From IMG/VR virus record IMGVR_UViG_3300025018_000093: a stretch of DNA of 64,000 nt; one strand, 5' to 3'. Below the pieces are notes generated by a model that saw only the letters and a list, made by a program, of their open reading frames with translations, had not been told where the DNA came from and ran no database searches. Source of the DNA: a virus (lineage: Duplodnaviria; Caudoviricetes). A program made the position numbers and the translations under genes. Shown here piece after piece: positions 4,692 to 46,470 of this stretch. The number at the start of each line of letters is the position of its first letter. Position 1 is the stretch's first letter.

Positions 4692-5810
4692 ATGCCCTTC
4701 ACGGTACGAGTGCAGAACTTCCAAAGTATCGCGGATGCGACTCTTGTGGTGGACAGATTCACCACAATCACTGGGCCTAACAACACAGGAAAGTCCGCGT
4801 TTCTCCGTGCCGTGCAGGGCCTCTTTCGAAACTCCAAGGGGACGGATTTCGTGCGCCGTGGTGCAACGCACTGCAGCGTACAGATCACTTTCGATGATGG
4901 TGTCTCCGTCACCTGGGAGAAGGGAAAGAACGTCAATCGCTACCGCATCAACAGCGAGGATTGGCTGGAGAAGGTGTCGCATGGAGTCCCTGAGTCCGTC
5001 GTAGACGTACTCAAGGTTCGTGCCGTGAACATTGCAAACACCTCCTGGTGGCCCCAGGTGGGAGAGCAGTTCAACGGGCAGGTGTTCCTTTTGGACAAGC
5101 CTGGGTCGGTGCTAGCAGAGGCCATCTCTGATGTGGAGCGTGTCGGGAAGCTGAACAAGGCACTCCAGGTGGCAGAGTCAGACCGGAGGAAAGCCCGGTC
5201 TGTACTGAAAGTTCGCCGTTCGGATGAGGAGAAGACCCAGGACAAGCTGGTGCTATTCCACGGTCTGGATGACGTCGGAAAACGCATTGAGGGTTTGGAG
5301 GAGCTGCAGGAACAAGCTGTGAAGGTGCGGGGGGCTCTCCTAGAGCTGCTGCGCTTGAAAGAGGCTCTTCACCGAGAGGGCGCCGTGATTGCGAAGCTTT
5401 CTGGGGTGGACAAGGTTAGTCTACCCGAGAAGGAATCCTTCTCTGAAGTGCTGGAAGACATTCGCATGCACCAGTTTCTTCAGAAGGCTAAGGGGGACCT
5501 GGGTAGTGCAAATCGAGAGGTGCAGGTACTCCAGAAGGCCTGTGAAGCCTTTGCAGCGGTAGACTTCGCGGAGGAGTTGGAGGTGCAGACAGAGAAGGCT
5601 CTTCAGAGTGTCTCTGCTCTTCGACAGTTTCGCTGCAATCTTCAGGAGGCCCAGCGGGATGTGCAGAACCTCTCCGAGGAAGTTCGACAAGCAACCGTAG
5701 ACTTTGTGTGTTCTCAGGAGGAACTCCACGGGGTTCTCCTGGAATTGCCGGAATGCCCCGTGTGCGGTGCTGACATTCAAGACCGGGAGGGACTCCAACA
5801 TGTCCACTGA
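4692..5810 (+). CDS. sbcC: SbcC/Rad50-like ABC ATPase, N-terminal half ending at the zinc hook
   Basis: VQNFQSI, Walker A GPNNTGKS, Q-loop region, long coiled coil, terminal CPVCG; no signature or Walker B motif in this ORF. Confidence 0.85.
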   Translation: MPFTVRVQNFQSIADATLVVDRFTTITGPNNTGKSAFLRAVQGLFRNSKGTDFVRRGATHCSVQITFDDGVSVTWEKGKNVNRYRINSEDWLEKVSHGVPESVVDVLKVRAVNIANTSWWPQVGEQFNGQVFLLDKPGSVLAEAISDVERVGKLNKALQVAESDRRKARSVLKVRRSDEEKTQDKLVLFHGLDDVGKRIEGLEELQEQAVKVRGALLELLRLKEALHREGAVIAKLSGVDKVSLPEKESFSEVLEDIRMHQFLQKAKGDLGSANREVQVLQKACEAFAAVDFAEELEVQTEKALQSVSALRQFRCNLQEAQRDVQNLSEEVRQATVDFVCSQEELHGVLLELPECPVCGADIQDREGLQHVH

Positions 5811-7914
5811 AGGCCCCTTGTTGAAGGATTGCCCTGTTCGTCTTGTCTGGCGAACGGATGTTCACATGGCGGACGTATCCCCAGTGTCCCGAACGGATGA
5901 TTGGGTGGAGACCGTTGCAGACAAGCTCCGACAGGTTGGGAAGATCGCCTGGGAGACCAAGGCGCAGGCTGTTTTGGATGGGGGTGACTTCTTCCATATC
6001 AAGTCTCCGGCCCGAACCTCTCATAGGACCCTTCGCCGTACTGTGGAGGTACACAGGGAAAGCTACCCTTGTCCGGTGTACGCCAACTTTGGAAACCATG
6101 ACAGCGTCTACAGTGACCTGCGCTGGCTGCACCAGCAGCCCCTGGGAGTCTTGTTTGAGACAGGGGTGTTCCTGCCGTTGTATGACGAGCATGAGGCTCT
6201 CTTCGAGAAGGATGGTGTCCGCGTCCGTGTCGTGGGGGTTCCTTACCACGGGACCAGTTACGACCTTTCTCGGTTGAAGATCGCCAAGGGTGAGGAAGAC
6301 TACCTCGTTGTCGTTGCGCATCTCCTTGCTTCCGACACGGACAAGGACAGCTTCTATGATAGCGAAGACGTGGTGCGCTACAGTGATCTACGAGACCTCG
6401 ATGCGGACGTGTTTTGCTTTCTCCCAGGAACTCAGGTTCTGGATTGGAACGGGAGGCAGGTACCTATTGAAGAGGTGGGTAGGTCTGTGGCACTGTCAGG
6501 GCGAGCAACCCCTGTGATCGTAGAGCAAGTGCACCCTCCCAGAGAGTACCATGGGGAGGTAGTCTCCCTTGATGTAGAGGGTGTTCCTTCCACTCTGCTT
6601 CCGGGGGCTACCTTGGAACACCCCTTCTGGGTAGCAAAGGGTGTGCTTTCATATCCTTGCAGTTCCTGTGATACCCCTCCAGAGGTTTCTCCCGAGTGGG
6701 TCGCTGCGGAGGCTATTGATGTAGGAGACTTTGTTTCTATCCCGGTGCCGCAGATCCCTTCAAAAGCAGTCTCCTCTCCGGGATTAGCGCGTCTTCTGGG
6801 TTATTACCTTGCAGAGGGGCATCTCATCGAGAATCGGGGAAAGGATCCCGTGGCCGGGGTAGGGTTCTCTTTCCACTCCGGGGAGACTTCTTTGCACCAA
6901 CACGTTGCGGAGCTGGTGCGAGAACATTTTGATCGAGAAGTACACTCTCACCCCGCAGGACCTAATTGTGTACAGCTTTGCACATACGGTCCCGAGATTG
7001 CTTCCTTCTGCGGAGAGAATGGGGGGCGCTACTCCACAAAGAAGGAGGTGTCCCCTTGGGTGTGGCGGTTGGATGCCAGGAGCCGACTGGAGCTTTTGGT
7101 TGGATGGTTGCTTGGGGATGGGCATGCTCGGAACCCAGAGCGCTACGACCGAACTAAGGTCGAAGTTATGGGAGCGACCTCCTCTCCTAACCTAGCATCA
7201 CAGATGTTTCTCCTCTCTTTGTCTCTGGGCTTGCGGGCGACATATTTCATACGTCCAGGTGGAAAGAGCACATTTCCTGGTGGGATTGTCTCTGATGCAG
7301 AGCCTTCTCATATCATCTCCTTCTACGGGGATGATGCTGAGATGTTGGGCGCTCTGATGGGTGTTTCCTTTCCTGAAAGAGAGAAGACTAGAGTGTCTGG
7401 GTTTTTCCAGGGGGGTTTGTATTGGGCTAGAGTGCGAGGTGTTTCCAGGAAGTCCTACCAGGGGCTCGTTTACAACATGCGAACATCCACTCAGGAGTAT
7501 GTTGCTGGACTTCTCTTGACGCACAATTGCTTCGGTCACTGGCACAAAGACCAGGGGATCACGGAGATTACTCCTGGAAAATGGGTAGTAAACATTGGAA
7601 GCCTCACCCGGGGGTCTCTTTCGCAGGACAACCTTGAACGTGCTCCAGCATGTGCGGTTCTCGCTTTCGGTGCCTCCGGGATTCGCATTGAGAGGAGGAA
7701 CTTGCGAGTCGCTCCTGCGGGGGATGTATTTGATACGCGGGGGAGGGCGCAGAGCGAAGTGCAGTCGATGGTCATTGACGATTTTGCTCGAAAGCTCCGA
7801 GAAGTCCTAAACACAACAGAGGAGCGCAAGTCACTGGTGGACTCTCTTCGTGAGATGGAAGGTGTCCCAGAGGCTGTGCGAGAGCGTGCACTGCTCATCT
7901 TGGAGCAGGTGTAG
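5800..7914 (+). CDS. sbcD: SbcD/Mre11-like metallophosphoesterase interrupted by an intein
   Basis: ATG 5800 after SD GGGAGG; motifs TDVH, GGDFFH, GNHD, VAH, and FGHWH after splicing. Confidence 0.88.
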   Translation: MSTEGPLLKDCPVRLVWRTDVHMADVSPVSRTDDWVETVADKLRQVGKIAWETKAQAVLDGGDFFHIKSPARTSHRTLRRTVEVHRESYPCPVYANFGNHDSVYSDLRWLHQQPLGVLFETGVFLPLYDEHEALFEKDGVRVRVVGVPYHGTSYDLSRLKIAKGEEDYLVVVAHLLASDTDKDSFYDSEDVVRYSDLRDLDADVFCFLPGTQVLDWNGRQVPIEEVGRSVALSGRATPVIVEQVHPPREYHGEVVSLDVEGVPSTLLPGATLEHPFWVAKGVLSYPCSSCDTPPEVSPEWVAAEAIDVGDFVSIPVPQIPSKAVSSPGLARLLGYYLAEGHLIENRGKDPVAGVGFSFHSGETSLHQHVAELVREHFDREVHSHPAGPNCVQLCTYGPEIASFCGENGGRYSTKKEVSPWVWRLDARSRLELLVGWLLGDGHARNPERYDRTKVEVMGATSSPNLASQMFLLSLSLGLRATYFIRPGGKSTFPGGIVSDAEPSHIISFYGDDAEMLGALMGVSFPEREKTRVSGFFQGGLYWARVRGVSRKSYQGLVYNMRTSTQEYVAGLLLTHNCFGHWHKDQGITEITPGKWVVNIGSLTRGSLSQDNLERAPACAVLAFGASGIRIERRNLRVAPAGDVFDTRGRAQSEVQSMVIDDFARKLREVLNTTEERKSLVDSLREMEGVPEAVRERALLILEQV
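6415..7527 (+). mobile_element. intein with LAGLIDADG homing endonuclease (371 aa) in SbcD
   Basis: Starts CFLPGT, contains LEHPF (block B), LLGYYLAEG and LVGWLLGDG, ends THN followed by +1 Cys. Confidence 0.92.
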
Positions 7915-7925
7915 AGGGGAGCAGT

Positions 7926-8900
7926 ATGTCGGATGTGAAACGCGAAAAGGCCCTGTACTGGTCCTCTTACGACTGCTACACGAACTGTGCTCAGCGCTTT
8001 CTATGGAAGTATGGAAACAAGGAGATTGACCTTGGTGCCGGACTTGGGAAGCCAAAACCAGGAGCAAAGCGGAGTTCGGAGCATCACCAGATCATGGGAA
8101 ACACGATCCAGTATGCTGTGGAACGACTCTACAACGACTATCTCTGGCAGCGCCTCATTGCAAAGGATCCTGCGGAGCGGTGGTCCGAGCGACGCTTGGC
8201 GGAGGCTTTGATTCATATCGTGACGACGGACTTGGAGAGGAGGTTAAGCAGTGCCTACATAGAGTGGGCGTGGGCTCCCTCTCACAGAGAGATGGCGCAA
8301 ACGTGCATCGCAGGTGTCATCGGATTTCTCAAGACCATGAAAGCTAACCATCTGGTGGGGAATCCGGCGAAGGCAGAGCACTTTTTACGGGGCTATCTCA
8401 ATGACGTGCCCGTGGCCGCTAGGGTGGACCTTATCCTGGAAAGGAGTCCTGAGTTGCCCCTCCCAGGTGTGACGATCCTGGATGGAAAGAATAGCCAGGA
8501 AAAAGGGGTGTACACAAGTCCAGACCAGCTTCGTTTCTACGCCCTCACCTATTTGTTGGTGCGTGGAAAGCTCCCGGACAGGGTTGGGTTTGTCTACTAC
8601 AGGTTCCCTTACGGCACCCCCACCGAGGAAGGTGGCACTGAGTCTGGGATTGATTGGGTTCCCTTGGATAAGGAGGATATCCGGGGTCTTGCTCATAAGA
8701 TCGTAGCTGTCCGAGAAAGTATCCGAGAGATGAAGTTCGATGCAGATCCTGTCCCATCGAAGTGCAAATGGTGTGTGTATGAGGACATCTGTGCTCCAAG
8801 GCAGGCACAGAAACAAGTGAATCGAGAGAAGCGTAAGAAGAAGGGGGAGGAGGAAGCTTTCTCTTTCAACGCCGATGAGTTGTTCACCGAGATCGACTAG
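7926..8900 (+). CDS. PD-(D/E)XK RecB/AddB-like exonuclease with probable Fe-S cluster
   Basis: WSSYDCYTNC, RVDLI...ILDGK, QLRFY, C-terminal CKWCVYEDIC (1+3 Cys layout). Confidence 0.8.
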   Translation: MSDVKREKALYWSSYDCYTNCAQRFLWKYGNKEIDLGAGLGKPKPGAKRSSEHHQIMGNTIQYAVERLYNDYLWQRLIAKDPAERWSERRLAEALIHIVTTDLERRLSSAYIEWAWAPSHREMAQTCIAGVIGFLKTMKANHLVGNPAKAEHFLRGYLNDVPVAARVDLILERSPELPLPGVTILDGKNSQEKGVYTSPDQLRFYALTYLLVRGKLPDRVGFVYYRFPYGTPTEEGGTESGIDWVPLDKEDIRGLAHKIVAVRESIREMKFDADPVPSKCKWCVYEDICAPRQAQKQVNREKRKKKGEEEAFSFNADELFTEID

Positions 8901-8925
8901 GAGCTTCGTTAAGTTGCCATAGTAG

Positions 8926-8962
8926 CTGACAAACTGTACCTGTTTACATAGATTGTGAACAG
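8926..8962 (+). promoter_or_regulatory. sigma70-like IS607 promoter overlapped by an inverted repeat
   Basis: CTGACA-N17-TAGATT (8926-8954); inverted repeat CTGTTTACA-tagat-TGTGAACAG (8940-8962) runs into SD AGGAGG. Confidence 0.55.
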
Positions 8963-10616
8963 GAGGTGCTTGTGCAGTATGTCAACACCAAGACCGCACG
9001 TTCCTTGTTCGGTGTCCACCCTAACACACTTCGGAAATGGGCAAATGCAGGACAGATCAAGTACATACGAACTCCGTCGGGACGACGGCTGTATGACTGC
9101 TCATCACTGTCCTCCGTCCCCAGATCAAAAATCGTGTATGCCCGTGTGTCCTCACGAGGACAACGACACGACCTTGAATCCCAAATCCGAGCACTACGAG
9201 CTAGCTATCCAGACCACGAAGTGGTCTTCGATATCGCCAGCGGTCTTAACTTCAAGCGAAAAGGACTTGACTCCGTACTGGAGCGAGTTCTGTCTGGAAA
9301 GGTCGAAGAAGTTGTCGTTGCTCACAAAGACCGGCTCTGTCGGTTCGGATTTGAACTCTTCGAGTCCATTGCAAGATTCCACAACACAAGGATCGTGGTT
9401 CTCGACGCTGCACAGGAATCACCTCAAGCGGAGCTTGTCCGAGACCTTCTTTCCATCATCCACGTATTCTCCTGCCGTCTTTACGGCCTCCGAAAGTACA
9501 GTAAACAGATCAAGGAAGATTCGGATCTACCCAAGGCCGGAGAGCCTTCCGAGGATTCAGCAGTACCTGGGGATTTCGAGGTATTGGTACAACAAGGCGA
9601 TTGAGTACTTACGTCAAAAAGGTACGAAAGCTTCGCTGTATGAGGTTCGGAAGATTCAAGCTCTTGAACATCCCGAGTGGGCACTAACGTGCCCTCAGCG
9701 TATTCGTGAACACGCTATCGCAGACGCTTGCGCAGCAGTGCGCAATGCTAAGCGAAAGTTCGTGACTGTAGGCGGTTTTCAGGCAGTCAAATTCCGGTCC
9801 CGCAAGAATCCAGTACAGGGGTTCGGGTTTGATGCTCAGAGTCTCCACGAGACTTTTGTCTTCCGAGGGAAGAACACCTGCGGCTTCGCCGCAACAGAAC
9901 CATTCGAAGCAGAGCTAGAGGGTTGTAGGGTCAAACGAGAATCAGGGCGATGGTTTCTGACTCTACCCTGTCGGGTAGCTATATCCAAACCTGAGAACCA
10001 AAGGCTAGGAGTTGTAGCACTTGACCCTGGGGTACGCACGTTTGTTAGCTACTACAATCCGTTGTGTTCGGGCTCCTTCGGAGCCGGTGACTTTCGGCGT
10101 TTGTATCGGCTGTGTCTGGGGCTAGACAAGTTGATCTCGAAGAAGGCGCTTGCACCTTCGAAGTGTAAGCGGAACATGCGCAAAGCAGAGCAACGCTTAC
10201 GTTGGAAGATCAAAGATTTTGTTGCGGACATCCACAACAAAGTTGCTCACTTTCTAGCCACGAACTTCGATACGATTCTGATACCGTACTTCAAGACCAG
10301 TAAGATGGTTGGCCGCCTGCGGTCGAAGACCGCGCGCAGCATGCTGACGTGGGCACACCATCGTTTCAAGACAGTTTTGAAGTCGGTTGCAGAGCGCTAC
10401 AGCGCTCTGGTTGTCGAGGTATCAGAGGCTTGGACGTCGAAGACGTGTTCGTACTGCGGGGAAGTACAGAACATAGGTTCGAAGAAAGTCATGCGGTGCG
10501 CCTGCGGCGCGACCGTAGACCGTGATTCAAACGGTGCACGAGGGATTTTCCTTCGTGCTTTGTCGGCAACGACCTGGACGGGCGAACCCCGTCTTGCATC
10601 TGTTAGCAACAGTTAG
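8955..10616 (+). CDS. tnpB: IS607 TnpB RNA-guided nuclease, Fanzor-like rearranged RuvC (start uncertain; ATG 9138 is a candidate)
   Basis: KIRIYP, ALDPG, ILIPYF, VSEAWTSKTCSYCG, CACG, DRDSNGARGI. Confidence 0.9.
   Translation: MNRRCLCSMSTPRPHVPCSVSTLTHFGNGQMQDRSSTYELRRDDGCMTAHHCPPSPDQKSCMPVCPHEDNDTTLNPKSEHYELAIQTTKWSSISPAVLTSSEKDLTPYWSEFCLERSKKLSLLTKTGSVGSDLNSSSPLQDSTTQGSWFSTLHRNHLKRSLSETFFPSSTYSPAVFTASESTVNRSRKIRIYPRPESLPRIQQYLGISRYWYNKAIEYLRQKGTKASLYEVRKIQALEHPEWALTCPQRIREHAIADACAAVRNAKRKFVTVGGFQAVKFRSRKNPVQGFGFDAQSLHETFVFRGKNTCGFAATEPFEAELEGCRVKRESGRWFLTLPCRVAISKPENQRLGVVALDPGVRTFVSYYNPLCSGSFGAGDFRRLYRLCLGLDKLISKKALAPSKCKRNMRKAEQRLRWKIKDFVADIHNKVAHFLATNFDTILIPYFKTSKMVGRLRSKTARSMLTWAHHRFKTVLKSVAERYSALVVEVSEAWTSKTCSYCGEVQNIGSKKVMRCACGATVDRDSNGARGIFLRALSATTWTGEPRLASVSNS
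8972..9604 (+). CDS. tnpA: IS607 TnpA: MerR-like HTH plus serine recombinase
   Basis: GVHPNTLRKW HTH; YARVSS, DIASGLNFKRKG, HKDRLCRFG; GTG 8972 after AGGAGG. Confidence 0.95.
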   Translation: MQYVNTKTARSLFGVHPNTLRKWANAGQIKYIRTPSGRRLYDCSSLSSVPRSKIVYARVSSRGQRHDLESQIRALRASYPDHEVVFDIASGLNFKRKGLDSVLERVLSGKVEEVVVAHKDRLCRFGFELFESIARFHNTRIVVLDAAQESPQAELVRDLLSIIHVFSCRLYGLRKYSKQIKEDSDLPKAGEPSEDSAVPGDFEVLVQQGD

Positions 10617-10645
10617 CAGAAAAGGTAGCAGTACATGATGGACCA
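10500..10645 (+). ncRNA. putative TnpB omegaRNA/reRNA (boundaries approximate)
   Basis: Expected at the tnpB 3' end and right end by analogy; hairpin GACGGG-cgaac-CCCGTC at 10577-10593 and GTTAGCA repeats. Confidence 0.35.
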
Positions 10646-10913
10646 CAGCACCAGATTCCAGCAGGCGGTCAAGAAGCGAGATACGCTGCGAGGGAAGTTG
10701 GACCGCTTGCAAGGAAAGCTGGAGAGTGCGCAGTCGCGCCTCTCGGAAGTAGAGGCACAGTGCCGGGCAAAGAACATTGACCCCAGCCAGATCGATGAGC
10801 TGATTGAGAAGGTGGAGAAGATTCTTCTGGGGCGGGTCGAGAACATCGAGCAAAGAGTGCAGGAAGCTGAGGACCAGCTTGCCCCTTACCTTGAGGAGGT
10901 CGCGTCGCTATGA
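10635..10913 (+). CDS. small coiled-coil protein
   Basis: Continuous heptad pattern over 92 aa; overlaps the next start (ATGA). Confidence 0.7.
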   Translation: MMDHSTRFQQAVKKRDTLRGKLDRLQGKLESAQSRLSEVEAQCRAKNIDPSQIDELIEKVEKILLGRVENIEQRVQEAEDQLAPYLEEVASL

Positions 10914-12079
10914 AGTTGACAGCAAAGAAGGAGGATCTTGAGCGGGCGCTTAAGATCGGAAGTACCACTGTGGCAAACTCCGGTGACGAGTTGCGGGCAC
11001 ACTATCTTTTCCGCTACCGCAATGGGAAGATGGAGGTTCTGGGAAATGACGAGCGCCTTCTGGGAAGTGTCGTCCTAGAGTGCGAAGTTGAGGGGGCCTC
11101 CGACAATCCTGACGAGAACAGGTTTACCGTAGAGGCAGACCGAATCAATCGGTGGCTTTCCGCATCTCCCAAGGGAAACGTCTCTCTTCGATTGAAGGAT
11201 GGAAAAGTGATTGCCCAGGCAGCTCTGGGAAAGGTCACGTTCCGCTCTTTGGACCCCGCTCGGTTCCCGTACTGGGAGTCTCGGCTTGAAGCTGCTACCT
11301 TCACAGGGAAAATCTCTGCTTCGCGTCTGCATCGCATTCTGAAGCATGCCCAGTTGTTCATGTCCAACAACGAAGCCCAGGATCCCGAAATCTGCTCCTG
11401 TGAGTTCAAGGACAATGGGTTCCTGTACGCGACGGATGCCGCTTCTGCGACGATCATTCGTGTGGCTGGGATGGAGAAGTCGAATGCCAGGATGACGAAG
11501 AAGAAGGACATTAGCTCCTACCTCCGATTTCTGGAAGCGCACTCGGAAGACGAGATTGAGTTCTGGGAGCATGACCAGTGTCTGTTTTTGAAGACAAGTT
11601 CTGGAAACCTTTTCGGACAGACGAAGTGGAAGTATGACTTCCCGGATATCGACTTGGGGTCCGCCTTTGAGGATGCACACCACTGGTGGACCTTCTCACG
11701 GGAAGAGATGATTTCGGTGATTGGGTTCCTCACACCCAGTGCGGTCCGAGACCGCTACCAGATCCATTTCAAATTGGATGGCGTCGGGAACATTAACGTT
11801 TCCCTCACCTCCGCTGCGGGTGGAAAGGTGGAGATTCCGGTCAACTGCAAGGAATCCAAGTCCGTTGCCGATTGCGTCCCTCTCCCACAGGGTGGCTTCC
11901 CGTTGTCCTATGAGTACCTCAAGAGTGTCCTCAAGGGTTTGAGCGGAGAGTTCGTGACGATGGCCTCCAGCCAGCTCCTCAATGACGCGGGGGATCCTGC
12001 GGGTGGCTACTGCTCCTTCAAGCAGGAGGTGGAAGGCGACCAGTATCTTGTGGTGCTCGGTTGGTACGAGGAGCAATAG
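10910..12079 (+). CDS. dnaN: DNA polymerase III beta-clamp-like processivity factor
   Basis: 389 aa; MKLTAKKEDLERAL start, FPYWE/FPDID linkers, LYATDA; dnaX is nearby. Confidence 0.72.
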   Translation: MKLTAKKEDLERALKIGSTTVANSGDELRAHYLFRYRNGKMEVLGNDERLLGSVVLECEVEGASDNPDENRFTVEADRINRWLSASPKGNVSLRLKDGKVIAQAALGKVTFRSLDPARFPYWESRLEAATFTGKISASRLHRILKHAQLFMSNNEAQDPEICSCEFKDNGFLYATDAASATIIRVAGMEKSNARMTKKKDISSYLRFLEAHSEDEIEFWEHDQCLFLKTSSGNLFGQTKWKYDFPDIDLGSAFEDAHHWWTFSREEMISVIGFLTPSAVRDRYQIHFKLDGVGNINVSLTSAAGGKVEIPVNCKESKSVADCVPLPQGGFPLSYEYLKSVLKGLSGEFVTMASSQLLNDAGDPAGGYCSFKQEVEGDQYLVVLGWYEEQ

Positions 12080-29467: not shown

Positions 29468-32400
29468 ATGACGGGAGCCAAAGGAAGTCTAGGCGAATTG
29501 GCCCTTGGAGTGTCTCGCTCCAGGTCTGCCGTACGCGAAAGCGTCTCCGGTCAGGATGACTGTCCCAGTATTATTGACTTCATCGAAGCCCCCTGGGGCC
29601 TTGCCCAGAGGATGTTTCCAGTCCAGAAGGTCATTCTCAAAGCCTACTATGGCTTGGCTCTGGATACGAAGAAACGCAACGTTCGGATCACTGACTGGAA
29701 GCATCAGAACGAGCGCATTCTCACGGAAGCCGAGTACCTTGAGTGGCTTTACGAGCAGGGACGAAGCAATATCCGGGAAGTGGTCGCGGGGGACCGCCGT
29801 CGTGATCTAGTCCTGGCCATCGGACGTCGTTCTGGGAAATGTGTTTTGGGGGGCACCTTGGTCTTGACCAACCAAGGGCTACTCAAGATCCGTGACTTGC
29901 TTCCAGATCCGAATCTGCCCGAAAACCAGTCCGCGCCTTTGCGTGTGCAGGTGGCGCAGGAAGGAAGTCGTCGAGCGGACACCAGTCATTTCTACAATGG
30001 GGGTGTCAAGACAGTCCGTGAGTTGACGACACGGTGTGGGTACCAGCTTGGGGGGACGGACAATCATCGTATCAAGGTGCTGTATCCAGACGGTGCGGTG
30101 CGTTGGAAGTATCTGGCAGACTTGCGTGAGGGAGATATTGTGGCGGTCCATCGGGGGACAAACCTGTGGGCCGTAGATCCTGTAGATTGCCGTTCACACC
30201 ACGTGGCCTCTGGGCAGAAAGAGGTGCGTCTACCCGAGATCCTGGATGAACGCTGGGGCCTCTTGTTGGGGTGTCTTGTCGGAGACGGACATTGGACTAA
30301 GAGGTCCAGTGTTGCGATGACGATGGAAGATCCCGAGATGTGGGATCAGATGCAGGAGCTGTTCTCCGAGTTGCTCGGGCACAGCTCGACATACATGGAC
30401 AAGCGAACTGCAAACACAGGAGACCTCCAGTTTCATAGTGTTGCGGTTCGGGAGTTTCTGCACCGTCTTGGGTGGCGTTGGGATCTGGAGAGAGACCAGA
30501 AAGAGATACCCTGGTCGATTCTGCAATCTCCGAGGTCTGTTGTTGCTGCCTTCCTTCGCGGGTTGTTCGAGACGGATGGTTGCGCAGAGAGCCAGGGGCA
30601 AAGTGTTACTTTCTCTTCTGCTTCTGAGGTTCTAGCACGGCAGGTGCAGACCGTGCTGCTTAACTTCGGCATTGTCAGCTTTGTGTTCCCGAAGCCCGTG
30701 CATGACAAGACGTACTGGATTTTGCGGGTGCGTGGCACGAACTCCCGTCGCATATTTGCGCAGGAGATTGGGTTCCTGACTGATCGAAAGATGTGTCCGC
30801 TACTCGAATCTTTCAGGGAGGATCCTCGGGAGGGTGGGGACACCGAGGCAATCCCCTATCAGCAGGTTCTAGCGCGGCAACTTCTCGAATCGGTGCCCAA
30901 GAACGTTTCTGGTAAGGGATGGACGAGGTCTGCATTGCGTGCTGCTCTGGGGAATGTAATCAAGCCTTCTTCGGGTGAGCCGTTGACATACCCCAGGCTC
31001 CGAAAAGTCATCCAGATCGCTCGGGATGTAGAGGCACAAGACAGTGAGACTCTTGCCCACTTTCAGGGAGTTCTGGACACCAACTACTTCTTTGATCCCG
31101 TAGTCTCCATCACAGAGCGAGAGGAACAGGTATGGGATCTGACAGTCCCCAATGGCCATGCCTTTGTGGCCAACGGGATGGTCAATCACAACACCGAGAT
31201 GGCAGCCTGGATCACGTCTTACGAAATCTACAAGCTTCTGCGCAAGCCTAATCCCCAGGGGTACTACGGCATTCCTCCTGGAGACGAGATCAAGCTGTGT
31301 GCTGTGGCTACGGGTAGAGATCAGGCTGGGGAGCTATACGCCAAGGCGAAGCACTACTTCCTAGACTGCACCTTGTTCGACCCCTATCGGGCGAATATGA
31401 CGACCACCTACAGTCGTTTTCAGACCCAGCACGACATTGAAAGTTATGGGAGATACGGGGAGCACGACGTCACGCAGGCGACGATCAAAGCCACGTTCTA
31501 CTCCTGTATCGCAAAGGGTCTTCGTGGTGCTGGAAATATCGTGGTGGTGTTGGATGAGATTGCTCACTTTGTGACGAGTGGGCAGAGTTCAGGAAAGGAA
31601 GTCTATAAGGCGGTCACGCCTTCTATTGCTGCCTTCAGCCCTAAGGACCCGGACAAGTCCGTTTCGGCGGCACCCAGCCGAACAGATGGGCGAGTCATCC
31701 TGATTAGCTCCCCTCTGGGGAGAGATGGGTTCTTTTACCAGAAGTTTCGACAAGGGTTCGAACGTTCTGAGTCGATGCTGTGCATTCAGGCTCCAACGTG
31801 GGAGGTCAACCCTTCCATCTCGGCAGAGGACCTGGAAGGGTTCTACCTGGATGATCCCACAGATTTCTTCACGGAGTTCGGGGCAGAGTTCTCGGACCGT
31901 ACCCGAGGGTGGATTGAGCGCCGTGAGGATCTGGTGCATTGTATCGATCCAAAGTTGTCGCGACTCTTGAAAGCTCCGGCCCGGCAGCCGCACTTCATGG
32001 GGATCGACGTTGGTGTTACCAAAGGGGGCGACGGAACAGCTGTCGCCATTGGACACATTGACAAGAAACAGCAGATTGTCCTGGACTACATTGAGTGGAT
32101 ACGTGCTGGCGAGGGCAAGTACGCGCACCTGGAACGGCTGGACTTCGAGGATATTGCGGATTGGATTGTTTCCCTGGGGAAGAAGTTCCACATCACAGAG
32201 GGTATTATGGACCGCTGGGCGGGACTCCCAATGGAGCAGTACCTTCAGAAGAAGGGTATGCGTCAGATTGTCTCCCAGCTATTTACTCCGAAGGATACCA
32301 CGTTCATGTACAAGACCTTCAAGGACATGATGTGGGATGGTCGGCTTCGGTTGTACAACTGGCGACCCAACCCCACCGGGTCCTCAGGGGTGCTCCTGGG

Positions 32401-32764
32401 CAGTGCTGAGGAGGGCACTCTCTGTGATTACCTGGAAGAGCTGCTTAGTCTCCAGGAAGAGAAAATCAGCCGCCACGTCTCAAGTATTGAGGCACCCAAG
32501 TCTGGGGACAAGCATGACGACCGTTCGGATGCCCTGATTCGCATGGTATGGTTAGCAAGCCAGAAGCTCGGCAACCCCAAGTTTATTGCCGGGGGTGCCG
32601 GGGGTGCCTCTGCGTACGCCCGAGCAACGGGATATGGTAACCGTCCACAAACCCAGCTGGGCTTCTTACGCCGTGCCCGCTTGGGTGGAAGCCACCCAAG
32701 TCGACAGATCATCTCTCGGCTCACCGGAAATCCGGGTGGATTTCCGGGAGGAGGGAGGATGTGA
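29468..32764 (+). CDS. terL: terminase large subunit with intein
   Basis: Walker A GRRSGK|T split by the intein, Walker B VVVLDEIAHF, LISSP coupling motif, nuclease GIDVG...DDRSDA. Confidence 0.93.
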   Translation: MTGAKGSLGELALGVSRSRSAVRESVSGQDDCPSIIDFIEAPWGLAQRMFPVQKVILKAYYGLALDTKKRNVRITDWKHQNERILTEAEYLEWLYEQGRSNIREVVAGDRRRDLVLAIGRRSGKCVLGGTLVLTNQGLLKIRDLLPDPNLPENQSAPLRVQVAQEGSRRADTSHFYNGGVKTVRELTTRCGYQLGGTDNHRIKVLYPDGAVRWKYLADLREGDIVAVHRGTNLWAVDPVDCRSHHVASGQKEVRLPEILDERWGLLLGCLVGDGHWTKRSSVAMTMEDPEMWDQMQELFSELLGHSSTYMDKRTANTGDLQFHSVAVREFLHRLGWRWDLERDQKEIPWSILQSPRSVVAAFLRGLFETDGCAESQGQSVTFSSASEVLARQVQTVLLNFGIVSFVFPKPVHDKTYWILRVRGTNSRRIFAQEIGFLTDRKMCPLLESFREDPREGGDTEAIPYQQVLARQLLESVPKNVSGKGWTRSALRAALGNVIKPSSGEPLTYPRLRKVIQIARDVEAQDSETLAHFQGVLDTNYFFDPVVSITEREEQVWDLTVPNGHAFVANGMVNHNTEMAAWITSYEIYKLLRKPNPQGYYGIPPGDEIKLCAVATGRDQAGELYAKAKHYFLDCTLFDPYRANMTTTYSRFQTQHDIESYGRYGEHDVTQATIKATFYSCIAKGLRGAGNIVVVLDEIAHFVTSGQSSGKEVYKAVTPSIAAFSPKDPDKSVSAAPSRTDGRVILISSPLGRDGFFYQKFRQGFERSESMLCIQAPTWEVNPSISAEDLEGFYLDDPTDFFTEFGAEFSDRTRGWIERREDLVHCIDPKLSRLLKAPARQPHFMGIDVGVTKGGDGTAVAIGHIDKKQQIVLDYIEWIRAGEGKYAHLERLDFEDIADWIVSLGKKFHITEGIMDRWAGLPMEQYLQKKGMRQIVSQLFTPKDTTFMYKTFKDMMWDGRLRLYNWRPNPTGSSGVLLGSAEEGTLCDYLEELLSLQEEKISRHVSSIEAPKSGDKHDDRSDALIRMVWLASQKLGNPKFIAGGAGGASAYARATGYGNRPQTQLGFLRRARLGGSHPSRQIISRLTGNPGGFPGGGRM
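29840..31192 (+). mobile_element. intein with LAGLIDADG endonuclease (451 aa) in the TerL Walker A motif
   Basis: Starts CVLGGT; GTDNHR block B; LLGCLVGDG and LRGLFETDG; ends VNHN followed by +1 Thr. Confidence 0.93.
32677..32693 (+). repeat. 17-bp direct repeat, copy 1 (copy 2 at 33420-33436)
   Basis: CCGCTTGGGTGGAAGCC occurs at both positions. Confidence 0.85.
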
Positions 32765-43902: not shown

Positions 43903-46470
43903 ATGCATTGCGTCCACACCATGGAGAGTGCTATGGGAAGCTTGTCTTCGAGGGTCACAAAGGAAAGTCTGGAGAGACTTCACGCGGAGTGTACGGACAG
44001 GGAGGTGGCAGCCTTGTACGGGGTCACGGATGTGGCCGTGAGTCGCCTTCGGTACAGGTGGGGAATAACGACGCTCTCCCAGCGGGAACGCCGGGAGGTG
44101 CTGCGGGGGGCTGAAGGGTTATCTTTGGACACCCTGACACCCGCGAAGTTGGTGGACCTGTACACACAGATGGGGGACTCCCAGATTGGTGCCCTTTACG
44201 GTGTGTCAGGCACGACGATTCGGAAACTCCGGCAGGATTGGGGTATACTGAGTCTCTCCAAACGCGAGAGGTCTACCTCAGTAGGAGACTTCACGGAGGA
44301 CCAGAAGCAAATCTGCATGGGAACCCTGCTTGGGGATGGTCACCTCATGAAGCATGGAGTCTTGAAGATATCCCATGCTTGGCACCAGCTTTCGTACACG
44401 AGATGGTTGCAACGAGCGTTGCAACCGCATGCTCGCCCTCTCTTCTATGAAGAGAAACAGATGGATACAGGGACTCTGTGTTTTGCCTTCGGGTTTCGTA
44501 CCCAGGAGCATGTTTGGTTGCGGACCCTCCGAGGGATTTTTTACCCAGAGGGGAGGCGTATCTTTCCGCAGTCTGTTCTGGAGGAGTTAGGGCCTTTGGG
44601 CTTAGCGGTCTGGTACTTCGATGATGGGAACCTTGCGAGTGGCCTTCCCTCTTTTGCACTGGGGGAGATCAGCGACCAGGAAGCGGAAGCGGTATGTCAG
44701 AAGGTGCACCAGAGGTTTGGACTCGACACTTATGTCCGACCACAGTCCACGGAGACCTGCAAAATTATGGGGGTGCGCGGGGGAAGTGCTGACATCTTCT
44801 TTCACCTGGTGCGCTCTTATGCCACCCCAGATATGCTCCACAAGCTCCCCCAGAAACACTGGACCACACACGCTCCGCTTCACATCCACAGCACGCCCGA
44901 GAAAGGGATTCCGCAGGAGTTGGGAGAGCGGTGCTGTGCGTGGGACTCCCTAAGTGCACAGTCTAGGGAGACGCTCCTGGGGGACCTTGTGGCGTACTGG
45001 CACCAGCGGGGTTTCCCACATTACGTGCCCCGCCCCGAGGAACTGGAAACGCTGCTGTCCCTATCTGCGGAGCAGGTTCTCCGCAAGGATGGTCTTTCCT
45101 GTCGTCCACACAATGTGGGGCAGGCAACTTGCCAGGCGTTCGCAACGCACATCTGGGAGGCTCGTTCTTGGGGATCTAAGCAGAGTCCTCGGGAGATATT
45201 TGAGGATGCAGACGCTCTTGGTAAAGCAATGTGCGCTCGCCTCACGGCCCGCAGTAAGACGCAAAAAGGACGTGTGGCACCCATGTCCGCAGCGGAGGTT
45301 CGTGTCAGTATCCGTTCCTGGAAGCTCTCCGGGGTGTACAATTTCAGACCGAGCCTAGCCAAGATACTAGTAGACTTGTACGGCACTCCTGGAGGGACTG
45401 TGTATGATCCCTGTGCTGGATATGGGGGAAGGATGCTCGGTGTGGTGCTTTCCCAGCATGTGATGCGTTACGTAGGGTGCGACCCCCATCGGGAGGGGAT
45501 CGCGCGTCTCGGTTCTTTCGCAGGTTGGTTGGAGGAGTACCTTCCAGGAGTGTCTTCCAGGGTGTCTTTGCATGTCACTCCTGCAGAGGACTTCTATCCA
45601 CCCCCCTGTGATCTTGTGATCACGTCTCCTCCCTACTGGTGTCGCGAGCAGTATGAAGACTCCCCACAGCAGTCCGGGGTACGGTACCCCACATACGCGG
45701 CATGGCTGGAAGGATTTTGGTCACGTGTACTTGGAGCTTCCTATCAAGCTCTCCGTCCGGGTGGGTGGATGCTCCTGAATGTGGATGACTTCACCATTGG
45801 GCAAACCTCATATCCTCTGGTGAAGGACACTTTGGATCTATGCCGAGACCTCGGTCTCCATCTGGAAAAGACTTTCCGCTATGAGATGCCGAGGTTTGCG
45901 CAGCGGAGAAATCATGAGTCTATTCTGGCTTTGGTCAAACACGGAGATGCCCGTGAAGTGACCCCGGCTGCCAAAATGACACTCTCTCGTTGTACCCAAT
46001 GTGGGTGCGTGTTACCTGCGAGGGAGCTTCGGGAAAAACGGTGCTCCGACTGCCGAAAGCCAAAGACACATATTGTGGTCTGTGAGGGCTGTGGGCAAAA
46101 GCTGGAGGCTCATCGGGGAAACCGCCGCTTCTGTTCTGAGAACTGTAGGGCTCGGCACCACCGAAAGAAAAAGTCCGAGGGGAGGGGTGCTATCGTGCGT
46201 TCCTTCCTCTGCATCTCTTGCGGGAAGACTTGGGAGACGGAAGCTCAGGGAAGTTTCAAATGGTGCCCTGTGTGCCGGGAGAGGGAGGCAATCCAAAAAA
46301 GGACGCAGACGTGCGCGTATCACCATTGCGGGAGAGAGTTCGTTGACACCACCCCGAAAAACTCGATGAGTTACTGTCATCCAGAGCATCGTCGTCGCGA
46401 GAAGTTGTTTCGCTCTGGTAAGGCGAAGGATTTGAGCTACTTCCGAAGTCCAGATCCCGTGCTGGGATAA
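43903..46470 (+). CDS. fusion: 2xHTH + LAGLIDADG_2 endonuclease + N4C/N6A DNA methyltransferase + Zn ribbons
   Basis: EVAALYGV..VSRLR / QIGALYGV..IRKLR; GTLLGDG and AVWYFDDG; NFRP, VYDPCAGYGG, ITSPPY; at least 4 CxxC pairs plus CSENC. Start may be 43921 or 43933. Confidence 0.85.
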   Translation: MHCVHTMESAMGSLSSRVTKESLERLHAECTDREVAALYGVTDVAVSRLRYRWGITTLSQRERREVLRGAEGLSLDTLTPAKLVDLYTQMGDSQIGALYGVSGTTIRKLRQDWGILSLSKRERSTSVGDFTEDQKQICMGTLLGDGHLMKHGVLKISHAWHQLSYTRWLQRALQPHARPLFYEEKQMDTGTLCFAFGFRTQEHVWLRTLRGIFYPEGRRIFPQSVLEELGPLGLAVWYFDDGNLASGLPSFALGEISDQEAEAVCQKVHQRFGLDTYVRPQSTETCKIMGVRGGSADIFFHLVRSYATPDMLHKLPQKHWTTHAPLHIHSTPEKGIPQELGERCCAWDSLSAQSRETLLGDLVAYWHQRGFPHYVPRPEELETLLSLSAEQVLRKDGLSCRPHNVGQATCQAFATHIWEARSWGSKQSPREIFEDADALGKAMCARLTARSKTQKGRVAPMSAAEVRVSIRSWKLSGVYNFRPSLAKILVDLYGTPGGTVYDPCAGYGGRMLGVVLSQHVMRYVGCDPHREGIARLGSFAGWLEEYLPGVSSRVSLHVTPAEDFYPPPCDLVITSPPYWCREQYEDSPQQSGVRYPTYAAWLEGFWSRVLGASYQALRPGGWMLLNVDDFTIGQTSYPLVKDTLDLCRDLGLHLEKTFRYEMPRFAQRRNHESILALVKHGDAREVTPAAKMTLSRCTQCGCVLPARELREKRCSDCRKPKTHIVVCEGCGQKLEAHRGNRRFCSENCRARHHRKKKSEGRGAIVRSFLCISCGKTWETEAQGSFKWCPVCREREAIQKRTQTCAYHHCGREFVDTTPKNSMSYCHPEHRRREKLFRSGKAKDLSYFRSPDPVLG

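Follow-up and report, generated by a model that had tools for sequence, protein, structure and literature searches.

The window analysed here, a 64,000-nucleotide stretch of DNA from a virus of the Caudoviricetes (Duplodnaviria; IMG/VR record IMGVR_UViG_3300025018_000093), contains at positions ∼8901–10631 what by its sequence is a complete IS607-family insertion sequence with all parts intact, the boundaries having been placed from diverged relatives. All features described below lie on the + strand, and relatives are cited by locus number (L001 and onward). The tnpA gene (8972–9604) specifies an IS607 serine recombinase with a MerR-type helix-turn-helix and a resolvase catalytic domain, which matches NF033518 (transpos_IS607) at 2.5e-53 over positions 3–186 of the 187 in the model, PF00239 at 2e-18 (residues 56–176) and PF00376 at 3.8e-8 (residues 14–43), and contains the catalytic motif YARVSS. 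Its probable start is the GTG at 8972, 5 nt past an AGGAGG at 8961–8966; the open reading frame (ORF) as listed begins at 8966. The tnpB gene, of pro-Fanzor type, is given as 9045–10616 within a frame that is open from 8955 to 10616. The TnpB core (WED, REC, RuvC and zinc finger, as delimited with AF2, Foldseek and VIA-align) begins at KIRIYP and occupies 9516–10616; tnpA lies directly upstream of tnpB and overlaps it.

The tnpB frame matches NCBIfam NF040570 (1.8e-34, over nearly the whole model) and Pfam PF07282 (1.7e-15). RuvC-I is the D-P-G motif at 10023–10031 (GAC-CCT-GGG), whose D357 is equivalent to D324 of ApmFz2, the Fanzor2 of Acanthamoeba polyphaga mimivirus. The position of the classical RuvC-II Glu is occupied by Pro444 (CCG, 10284–10286) within ILIPYF, and an alternative Glu, Glu491 (GAG, 10425–10427; ApmFz2 E467), lies in VSEAWTSKTC, six residues ahead of C498 in the first CxxC of a zinc finger of the form CSYC...CAC (CxxC-N13-CxC; 10446–10505, from translation and alignment). 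RuvC-III is contributed by Asp524 (GAT, 10524–10526; ApmFz2 D501), the second D of DRD. The initial annotation of this DNA had placed these four codons at 10023 (Asp), 10284 (Pro), 10425 (Glu) and 10524 (Asp), and direct translation finds each of them there, in one open frame. Its description of a Fanzor-type rearranged RuvC, with DPG, no classical Glu and an alternative Glu, is likewise borne out and agrees with the literature, where Fanzors, and with them a narrow, mostly cyanobacterial IS607 pro-Fanzor clade, are recognized by DPG in combination with an alternative Glu placed six residues ahead of the zinc finger (PMC10711439); the rearranged clade is also named TnpB2 or RIIr (PMC10691335 for the RIIr branches). 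The annotation had named another Glu at the canonical RuvC-II position as evidence that would count against it; residues 440–452, around that position, hold no Asp or Glu, and the point is thereby answered.

In an alignment of 41 family sequences D357, P444, E491 and D524 are invariant, and the Pro of DPG is nearly so. Both pairwise and profile alignments to ApmFz2 (9B0L) set Pro444 opposite the Gly that replaces the classical Glu, a column that is Glu in classical phage TnpBs and Gly in giant-virus Fanzor2s. A larger alignment of 68 rows gives the same picture: in 62 of its 63 clade members the classical column is Pro or Gly and both the alternative Glu and the RuvC-III Asp are present (DPG in 59, DQG in 2 and DVG in 1), the remaining clade row being gapped at the last two positions. 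In the five outgroup TnpBs RuvC-I reads D-hydrophobic-G, the classical Glu is retained and the alternative column is Arg, Lys or Pro. A maximum-likelihood tree joins the window protein, its viral-contig relatives, the Microcoleus and Vibrio phage copies and two giant-virus Fanzor2s in one clade, and the branch that divides these 63 rows from the five classical phage TnpBs has 98% support in the Shimodaira–Hasegawa-like approximate likelihood-ratio test (SH-aLRT). The phylogenetic check proposed in the initial annotation therefore groups the protein with giant-virus Fanzor2s and apart from classical TnpBs, on a tree without Fanzor1. Solved structures are ranked in the same way, 9B0L being the best match by single sequence (5e-24, with ISDra2 TnpB at ∼1e-3) and by the 41-sequence profile (2.5e-53, versus 1e-14 to 1e-24 for classical TnpBs). 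The AF2 model has a predicted local distance difference test (pLDDT) score of ∼80–97 across residues 171–540 and matches structures of TnpB, Fanzor2 and Cas12f, the best again being 9B0L (Foldseek 1.6e-21; VIA-align Z 27.1, root-mean-square deviation 3.9, 388 residues).

Judged on these alignments, the active-site arrangement is not a chance pattern. The triad of ApmFz2 has been named as Asp324, Glu467 and Asp501 (PMC11832414), and its D324A and E467A mutants are reported to be catalytically dead (PMC10530073). Taken jointly with the whole of the explanation developed below, it is highly probable that the phage protein is a TnpB of the pro-Fanzor/TnpB2 lineage with a triad of Asp (in D-P-G), relocated Glu and Asp, and that it would act as a nuclease. 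The element belongs to an already named clade (pro-Fanzor/TnpB2/RIIr) that is widespread in phages and bacteria.

The tnpB frame is stop-free across the entire tnpA gene, in its +1 frame, and TnpB stands in the +1 frame of tnpA at every locus examined. Within the 93 tnpA codons that immediately precede the core, the TnpB frame contains no stop in 23/23 distinct viral loci and in 76/77 bacterial loci, where shuffling of synonymous codons within each tnpA predicts 1.1–5.4 stops and the third frame has ∼5–20; in the window taken by itself, such shuffles leave the frame open with a probability of 0.003. Mean pairwise amino acid identity in the +1 frame is 0.351 versus 0.243 ± 0.005 in the shuffles (z about 23); the first 40 columns, most of them upstream of the N-terminal extension, show none of this excess (0.124 versus 0.135). 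The frame also persists where tnpA has decayed. Internal stops interrupt tnpA at 20 of the 77 bacterial loci, and at 19 of these 20 the TnpB frame remains open for at least 105 codons (median 165; 52 in the exception). A further example is a single element with identical TnpB in six IMG/VR contigs (L019, L020, L021, L022, L024 and L031), in which tnpA has an internal stop and the TnpB frame is open from an ATG that precedes the core by exactly 93 codons, this ATG having a Shine-Dalgarno GGAG 10 nt ahead of it. The open frame, its excess conservation and its persistence after tnpA decay together indicate that the extension is a coding part of TnpB. On this comparative sequence evidence, two proteins are specified by one stretch of ∼560 nt, the first ∼150 residues of the nuclease being read from the +1 frame of tnpA, and selection acts on the overlapping frame. 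Existing gene calls record one protein in place of two: the corresponding locus of Microcoleus phage My-WqHQDG (L001, OR578706.1 154597–156282) is annotated as a single 561-aa hypothetical protein with tnpA missed, and the metagenome gene call for the closest homologue likewise lists only the long ORF. The literature searched held no mention of an overlap with tnpA or of a prokaryotic counterpart of the Fanzor2 N-terminal domain (NTD).

Within the extension, residues 95–187 (9237–9515) form a conserved domain in the +1 frame of tnpA that we propose as the counterpart of the Fanzor2 NTD (RuvC-R plus thumb). In ApmFz2 this domain comprises residues 53–130, with RuvC-R at 65–91 and the thumb at 109–130; Asn82 and Ser83 touch the omegaRNA pseudoknot, and the domain was described as absent from other available TnpB structures (PMC11832414). 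The S-W-F motif of the phage protein (residues 147–149; 9393–9401) is nearly invariant in the 41 sequences and aligns with S83-W84-Y85 of ApmFz2. The family profile alignment to 9B0L begins at residue 78, and a profile–profile match to a metagenomic giant-virus Fanzor2 begins at the SWF motif of the latter (E 3.5e-37). Structural superposition shows the same division, since among the VIA-align matches listed only 9B0L aligns upstream of model residue 170 (model 105–541 with chain 53–518), and the ISDra2 TnpB, ISFba1 TnpB and Cas12f entries align from model residues 179–184 onward. The N-terminal 200 residues alone gave no match in a phmmer search of the PDB, the match appearing only with the family profile, and the first ∼95 residues of the protein are unconserved and not basic-rich. 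The last 93 residues of the extension thus appear to correspond to the mimivirus Fanzor2 NTD, a correspondence drawn from sequence and from a model whose confidence in this part is modest. We would go one step further, tentatively and at a little under even probability, and propose that the Fanzor2 NTD is not a eukaryotic invention: it would be general to the pro-Fanzor IS607 clade of prokaryotes and phages, overprinted on ∼280–560 nt of tnpA in the +1 frame, would most likely have arisen de novo within tnpA, and would have reached giant viruses as a stand-alone region after the nuclease gene left tnpA.

The closest characterized counterpart is ApmFz2 itself (also ApmFNuc; mimivirus L79, in the IS607-like ISvMimi). 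Both proteins have D-P-G, the alternative Glu and the Asp, and have lost the classical Glu; both carry an NTD with an S-W-F/Y motif before the KIRIYP strand; both are associated with an IS607 serine recombinase; and their sizes are similar, ApmFz2 having 520 aa and the phage protein ∼520–545 aa. With the N-terminal domain included, the 'compact' nuclease of the initial annotation is therefore no smaller in kind than ApmFz2. The two differ in that identity is only ∼20%, the classical position is Gly in ApmFz2 and Pro in the phage protein, and the second zinc knuckle is CxxC in the former and CxC in the latter. ApmFz2 has a 53-residue nuclear localization signal tail, in contrast to the unconserved N-terminus of the phage protein; its guide RNA runs ∼200 nt beyond the ORF, whereas the phage right end comes 15 nt after the stop codon; and the virus that hosts the phage copy is bacterial, not eukaryotic. 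At two giant-virus Fanzor2 loci examined there is no tnpA overlap, tnpA being divergent in one and absent in the other. The phage element shares DPG, the alternative Glu and an IS607 TnpA partner with the pro-Fanzor/TnpB2 clade (PMC10711439; RIIr, PMC10691335), and filamentous cyanobacteria dominate the family found here just as they do the published pro-Fanzors. It departs from the clade in its huge aquifer phage carrier and in its zinc finger, which does not pass the literal CxxC...CxxC pattern. With the TnpBs of ISXfa1, ISFba1 (8IAZ) and ISDra2 (8H1J/8EXA) it shares the WED-REC-RuvC-ZnF fold (Z 23.5–25.2) and the same expected logic of a 3′-derived guide and transposon retention; those proteins, unlike the phage TnpB, have the classical Glu ∼50 residues before the zinc finger and D-hydrophobic-G, and lack the NTD (they align from model residue 181).

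The ends of the element were delimited by comparison with relatives. The left end (LE, 8901–8965) begins GAGCTTCGTTAAGTTGCCATAG and contains a subterminal site of the GTT(A/G)(A/C)CA type, and an LE start of the form GAG-N8-11-GTTrmCATAA is common to the window, L003, L004, L005 and L008. The left flank is CTAG (8897–8900), the end of a PD-(D/E)XK nuclease gene with its stop codon TAG, in which AG is the putative crossover and CTAG a candidate target-adjacent motif (TAM). Left junctions in the nearest elements are of the xAG/GGAG type, the slash marking the junction (...CGACTAG/GAG in the window and L003, ...ATAG/GAG in L005 and ...AAAG/GAG in L004). The right end (RE, 10602–10631) comprises a pair of GTTAGCA direct repeats together with GAAAA and, at the terminus, GGTAGCAG. 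The window has a single copy of it, and its architecture is matched in L003, L005, L008, L046, L049 and L053. The nearest elements place its limit at 10631, following GCATnTGTTArCA-N3-GTTAGCA-GAAA-GGTArCAG, after which the flanks diverge. In the wider family both direct repeats vary together and the terminus is GTATCGG. The right flank (10632–10651), TACATGATGGACCACAGCAC, includes the ATG (10635) of the next gene and, following the known logic of IS607 TnpB, is the predicted guide-encoding and target sequence. AG is the likeliest crossover dinucleotide by sequence: the empty site rebuilt with it, ...GACTAG/TACATGATGG..., retains both the nuclease stop codon and the ATG of the next gene. A crossover at GG (8900–8901 and 10641–10642) was rejected on two grounds: it would excise the start codon of the following gene, and the termini of relatives read ...GCAG or ...ACAG. 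IS607 elements typically have subterminal direct repeats in place of terminal inverted ones and cross over at a short core with no duplication of the target; in the window, long inverted-repeat pairs do not connect the two ends of the element.

A promoter had also been claimed for the element in the initial annotation. A sigma-70-like site, CTGACA-17-TAGATT, is indeed present within the LE (8926–8954, from a motif scan and relatives), and TTGACA-17-TAnAnT stands at the equivalent place in the LE of L003, L004, L008 and L016; the window site alone is not significant (1 promoter-like site found versus 0.8 by chance). No empty site or close phage relative was found with the clamp protein among viral contigs or with the flanking nuclease among JGI metagenomes. 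Logan contigs of four aquifer runs showed no joint across the element; as contigs cannot reveal rare excision, this result is uninformative on mobility. Mobility within the family is better illustrated by the identical element of the six IMG/VR contigs described above, which occurs in at least three flanking contexts and thereby defines its own boundary (...GTAACCG/). A scan of metagenomes for the RE motif gave mostly unrelated matches, the only new true ends being L046, L049 and L053. As a side observation, the terminal ∼60 nt of an RE of the same type (hairpin, GTTAACA/GTTAGCA repeats and GGTAACAG) occur in two JGI contigs with no recognisable TnpB upstream (L046:7948–8177 and L053:9178–9407); they may represent miniature or decayed derivatives of this element.

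The 3′ end of tnpB carries three hairpins (10536–10558, 10562–10573 and 10577–10593) that are candidates for a right-end RNA (reRNA) or omegaRNA scaffold (10536–10593). The fold of 10400–10651 has a z-score of −5.3 versus shuffles. Hairpin A (10536–10558), which spans the codons of GARGIFLRA, is 86% paired in 20 elements compared with 36–56% for slid-partner controls, with six pair types at each of two pairs that fall on third (wobble) codon positions, and hairpin B (10562–10573) has five pair types at two pairs. RNAalifold, applied to a 3′ alignment of 21 sequences, returned a 3-pair helix only; the hairpins were therefore specified by hand and their pairs counted by script over the 3′ alignment of the relatives. 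Rfam gave no family on 8700–11100 at E up to 5. The hairpins are consistent with the arrangement in characterized TnpBs, in which the guide-RNA scaffold overlaps the 3′ part of the nuclease gene, and guides of IS607 TnpBs are read from DNA just beyond the RE (PMC10711439). By this analogy, the LE promoter would drive one transcript, the 3′ part of which (hairpins 10536–10593 plus RE) would be kept as the guide-RNA scaffold, with the right flank read on as guide. The ribonucleoprotein would then cut element-free phage genomes at the site, beside the left-flank motif ending in AG, and recombination after the cut would restore or spread the element. We infer the nuclease activity, the RNA boundaries, the TAM, the guide, the exact start codon and this homing role from characterized IS607 TnpB and ApmFz2.

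The element resides in a huge tailed phage of aquifer origin. Genes in the window specify a UvsX-like recombinase, a sliding clamp and a clamp loader as well as a large terminase (TerL), a portal and a prohead protease; the last three are of Caudoviricetes type and the beta clamp is of bacterial type; all genes of the window are compact, lie on the same strand and are preceded by AGGAGG-type Shine-Dalgarno motifs. The closest relative of its TerL belongs to an uncultured 485-kb phage, and the DNA itself comes from aquifer (groundwater) metagenomes. An intact element within a bacteriophage, as the initial annotation had it, is thus what is found, with full-length IS607 tnpA, both ends defined by relatives and tailed-phage genes around them. 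Because the element is carried by a tailed phage whose translation signals are of bacterial type, we describe the protein as related to Fanzor2, and as presumably working in the same way, and do not file it as a Fanzor2.

Several observations weigh against parts of this account. The second zinc knuckle is C-A-C (CxC), and consequently the protein fails the literal regular expression published for pro-Fanzors (CxxC-x(12,18)-CxxC, with an Asp within 4–8 residues), which it passes once CxC is allowed. CxC is usual in the nearest relatives, many more distant members lack the cysteines, and the strict pattern is passed by 4/80 genome relatives and failed by 76/80; the published pattern is a search device and not a phylogenetic definition. 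The tree comes from a quick search with only five classical outgroups and no Fanzor1. The element boundaries were set by diverged relatives, the AG core deduced here is unlike the usual GG of IS607 and the CGG of the wider-family termini, and the left junction of L008 is TG. TnpB has two candidate starts: ATG 8979, 12 nt past an AGGAGG from which the tnpA GTG at 8972 would be served as well, and ATG 9045 (M31), at the start position common to most relatives. No convincing Shine-Dalgarno sequence precedes the latter, and since the conserved Lys-Trp codons of tnpA dictate this ATG, its sharing was rejected as proof of the start. Finally, AF2 renders the extension as a single helix of modest confidence (residues 107–122) with pLDDT <50 for residues 1–105 and 123–170, which would be expected of segments that fold onto RNA or DNA, yet limits the claim for the NTD, and the match to the NTD depends on one short motif together with a structural superposition read as aligned residue ranges.

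Readings that differ on the protein or its carrier were weighed against these data. Loss of the classical RuvC-II Glu might signify inactivation, the protein being an inactive or domesticated nuclease such as a TldR-like RNA-guided repressor, and such a reading would sit with a zinc finger that is non-standard here and gone in many relatives, and with an element that is fixed at its site in four samples, where no contig shows the site empty. We consider it quite improbable, given that all 41 sequences keep the alternative Glu and both Asp residues, that these align with a triad whose D324A and E467A mutants are reported dead in ApmFz2, that the element has kept an intact tnpA, its ends and a structured 3′ RNA, and that the multiple insertion contexts of a related element point to recent mobility of the family. 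A mimivirus protein as best solved relative, together with the several inteins and large genome context of the window, could also suggest that the carrier is a eukaryotic virus (a giant virus or mirusvirus) and the gene simply a Fanzor2. The tailed-phage structural and replication genes, the compact single-strand gene order with AGGAGG-type ribosome-binding sites and the TerL relative in an uncultured huge phage all speak against such a carrier, as do the closest TnpB relatives, which reside in phage-like contigs and bacterial genomes at 50–60% identity versus ∼30% to giant-virus copies; we assign it a very small probability.

Two other explanations concern the overlap. TnpB could be made as a TnpA–TnpB fusion by programmed ribosomal frameshifting into the +1 frame, with the upstream frame not translated from a start of its own. 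The universal +1 relation, the lack of any ATG, GTG or TTG in the 49 codons that precede the TnpB core and the poor ribosome-binding site of the shared ATG are all in line with such a fusion, which nevertheless fits the remaining data poorly and is in our view improbable: a short open stretch would suffice for frameshifting, yet 93–200 codons are open at nearly all loci; conservation of the extension exceeds the constraint imposed by tnpA; the frame is open where internal stops in tnpA would abolish the fusion (19/20 loci); the element of the L019 group has its own GGAG-preceded ATG; and giant-virus Fanzor2s have the same motif with no overlapping tnpA. The open frame might instead be a by-product of tnpA codon usage, in which case the real TnpB would be the ∼370-aa core with a non-standard start and the extension an artefact of gene calling. 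The extension is Ser/Thr-rich (32/93 residues), and is predicted by AF2 to be mostly disordered, and some of the motifs conserved in it reflect motifs that tnpA conserves in its own frame. Shuffles that keep the tnpA protein and its codon usage close the frame, however, and the near-total absence of stops (zero in 99/100 loci versus 1–5 expected), the excess +1-frame conservation, the survival of the frame after tnpA decay and the match of the extension to the solved Fanzor2 NTD in both sequence and structure leave an artefact of this kind highly unlikely. A TnpB with a coding, tnpA-overlapping N-terminal extension therefore remains the preferred reading.

The family to which this TnpB belongs is large: one library yields 933 proteins at an E-value cut-off of 1e-10, and a second yields 912 clusters at a cut-off of 1e-30. 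Clade members are carried by 32 IMG/VR viral contigs and, in a collection of 50,697 deposited phage records, by one cyanophage and ∼23 Vibrio phages; a DNA-level search of deposited phages with the element itself gave no match. Bacterial genomes hold at least 535 loci, mostly in filamentous cyanobacteria, Poribacteria and Chloroflexota, and a published census found some rearranged branches to be virus-enriched (PMC10691335). In Vibrio phage F100 and ∼22 related Vibrio phages (L002) DPG is replaced by DVG and tnpA is reduced to a truncated remnant. L002, L007, L009, L012, L016, L018, L019 and others have lost the zinc-finger cysteines (e.g. TSKTVSWT...IKS..TGK) and kept the D, the alternative E and the D. 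One of the closest relatives, at 54% identity (L097; P0080), lies on a 4.1-kb contig binned, in an unverified binning, with a metagenome-assembled genome of Parachlamydia sp.; Parachlamydia is an endosymbiont of amoebae, the same host as that of mimiviruses, and the contig is a lead on where a bacterial and a giant-virus copy could meet. The initial annotation put forward a viral carrier for this clade; as regards carriage by viruses to eukaryotes, the data amount to co-occurrence and do not support such a route directly.

Around the element, the two overlapping open frames lie on the + strand between two closely packed genes, the PD-(D/E)XK nuclease gene (7926–8900) and a small coiled-coil gene (10635–10913), and the IS607 element is identical in Logan contigs from four aquifer samples, one of which is possibly the source of the window; none of the runs listed with this DNA is an RNA run. 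Selfish elements other than IS607 are abundant in this phage. Apparent inteins or homing endonucleases interrupt the genes at 5704–7914, 29468–32764 and 43903–46470; the SbcD-like metallophosphoesterase, of 736 aa, has an apparent intein or homing-endonuclease insert, the large terminase has 1098 aa and its nearest relative aligned in two pieces, and a DNA methylase with a LAGLIDADG domain is also present in the window. The N-terminal half of an SbcC/Rad50-like ATPase (AAA_15, SMC_N) is encoded at 4692–5810 and a further ORF (11982/12084–12737) lies 6 kb downstream, with sbcD, the nuclease gene, the IS607 element and the clamp gene all between the two. The 92-aa coiled-coil ORF directly after the insertion sequence (10635–10913) may be part of an SbcC/SbcD-like system.

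The analysis adds to the pro-Fanzor clade a complete and, by its sequence, apparently functional element in a huge phage. That the lineage is common in phage genomes should help in the choice of candidates for testing and in thinking about how the lineage has spread. If the overlap reading is true, annotation pipelines conceal one of the two genes, 'core-only' TnpB constructs may miss a functional part, and the evolution of nuclease and transposase is tied nucleotide by nucleotide. The most interesting outcome would then be the presence of the Fanzor2 NTD in a prokaryotic lineage, overprinted on a transposase gene, and the origin of this Fanzor2-specific domain, which binds the pseudoknot and clasps the target DNA, would become directly testable.

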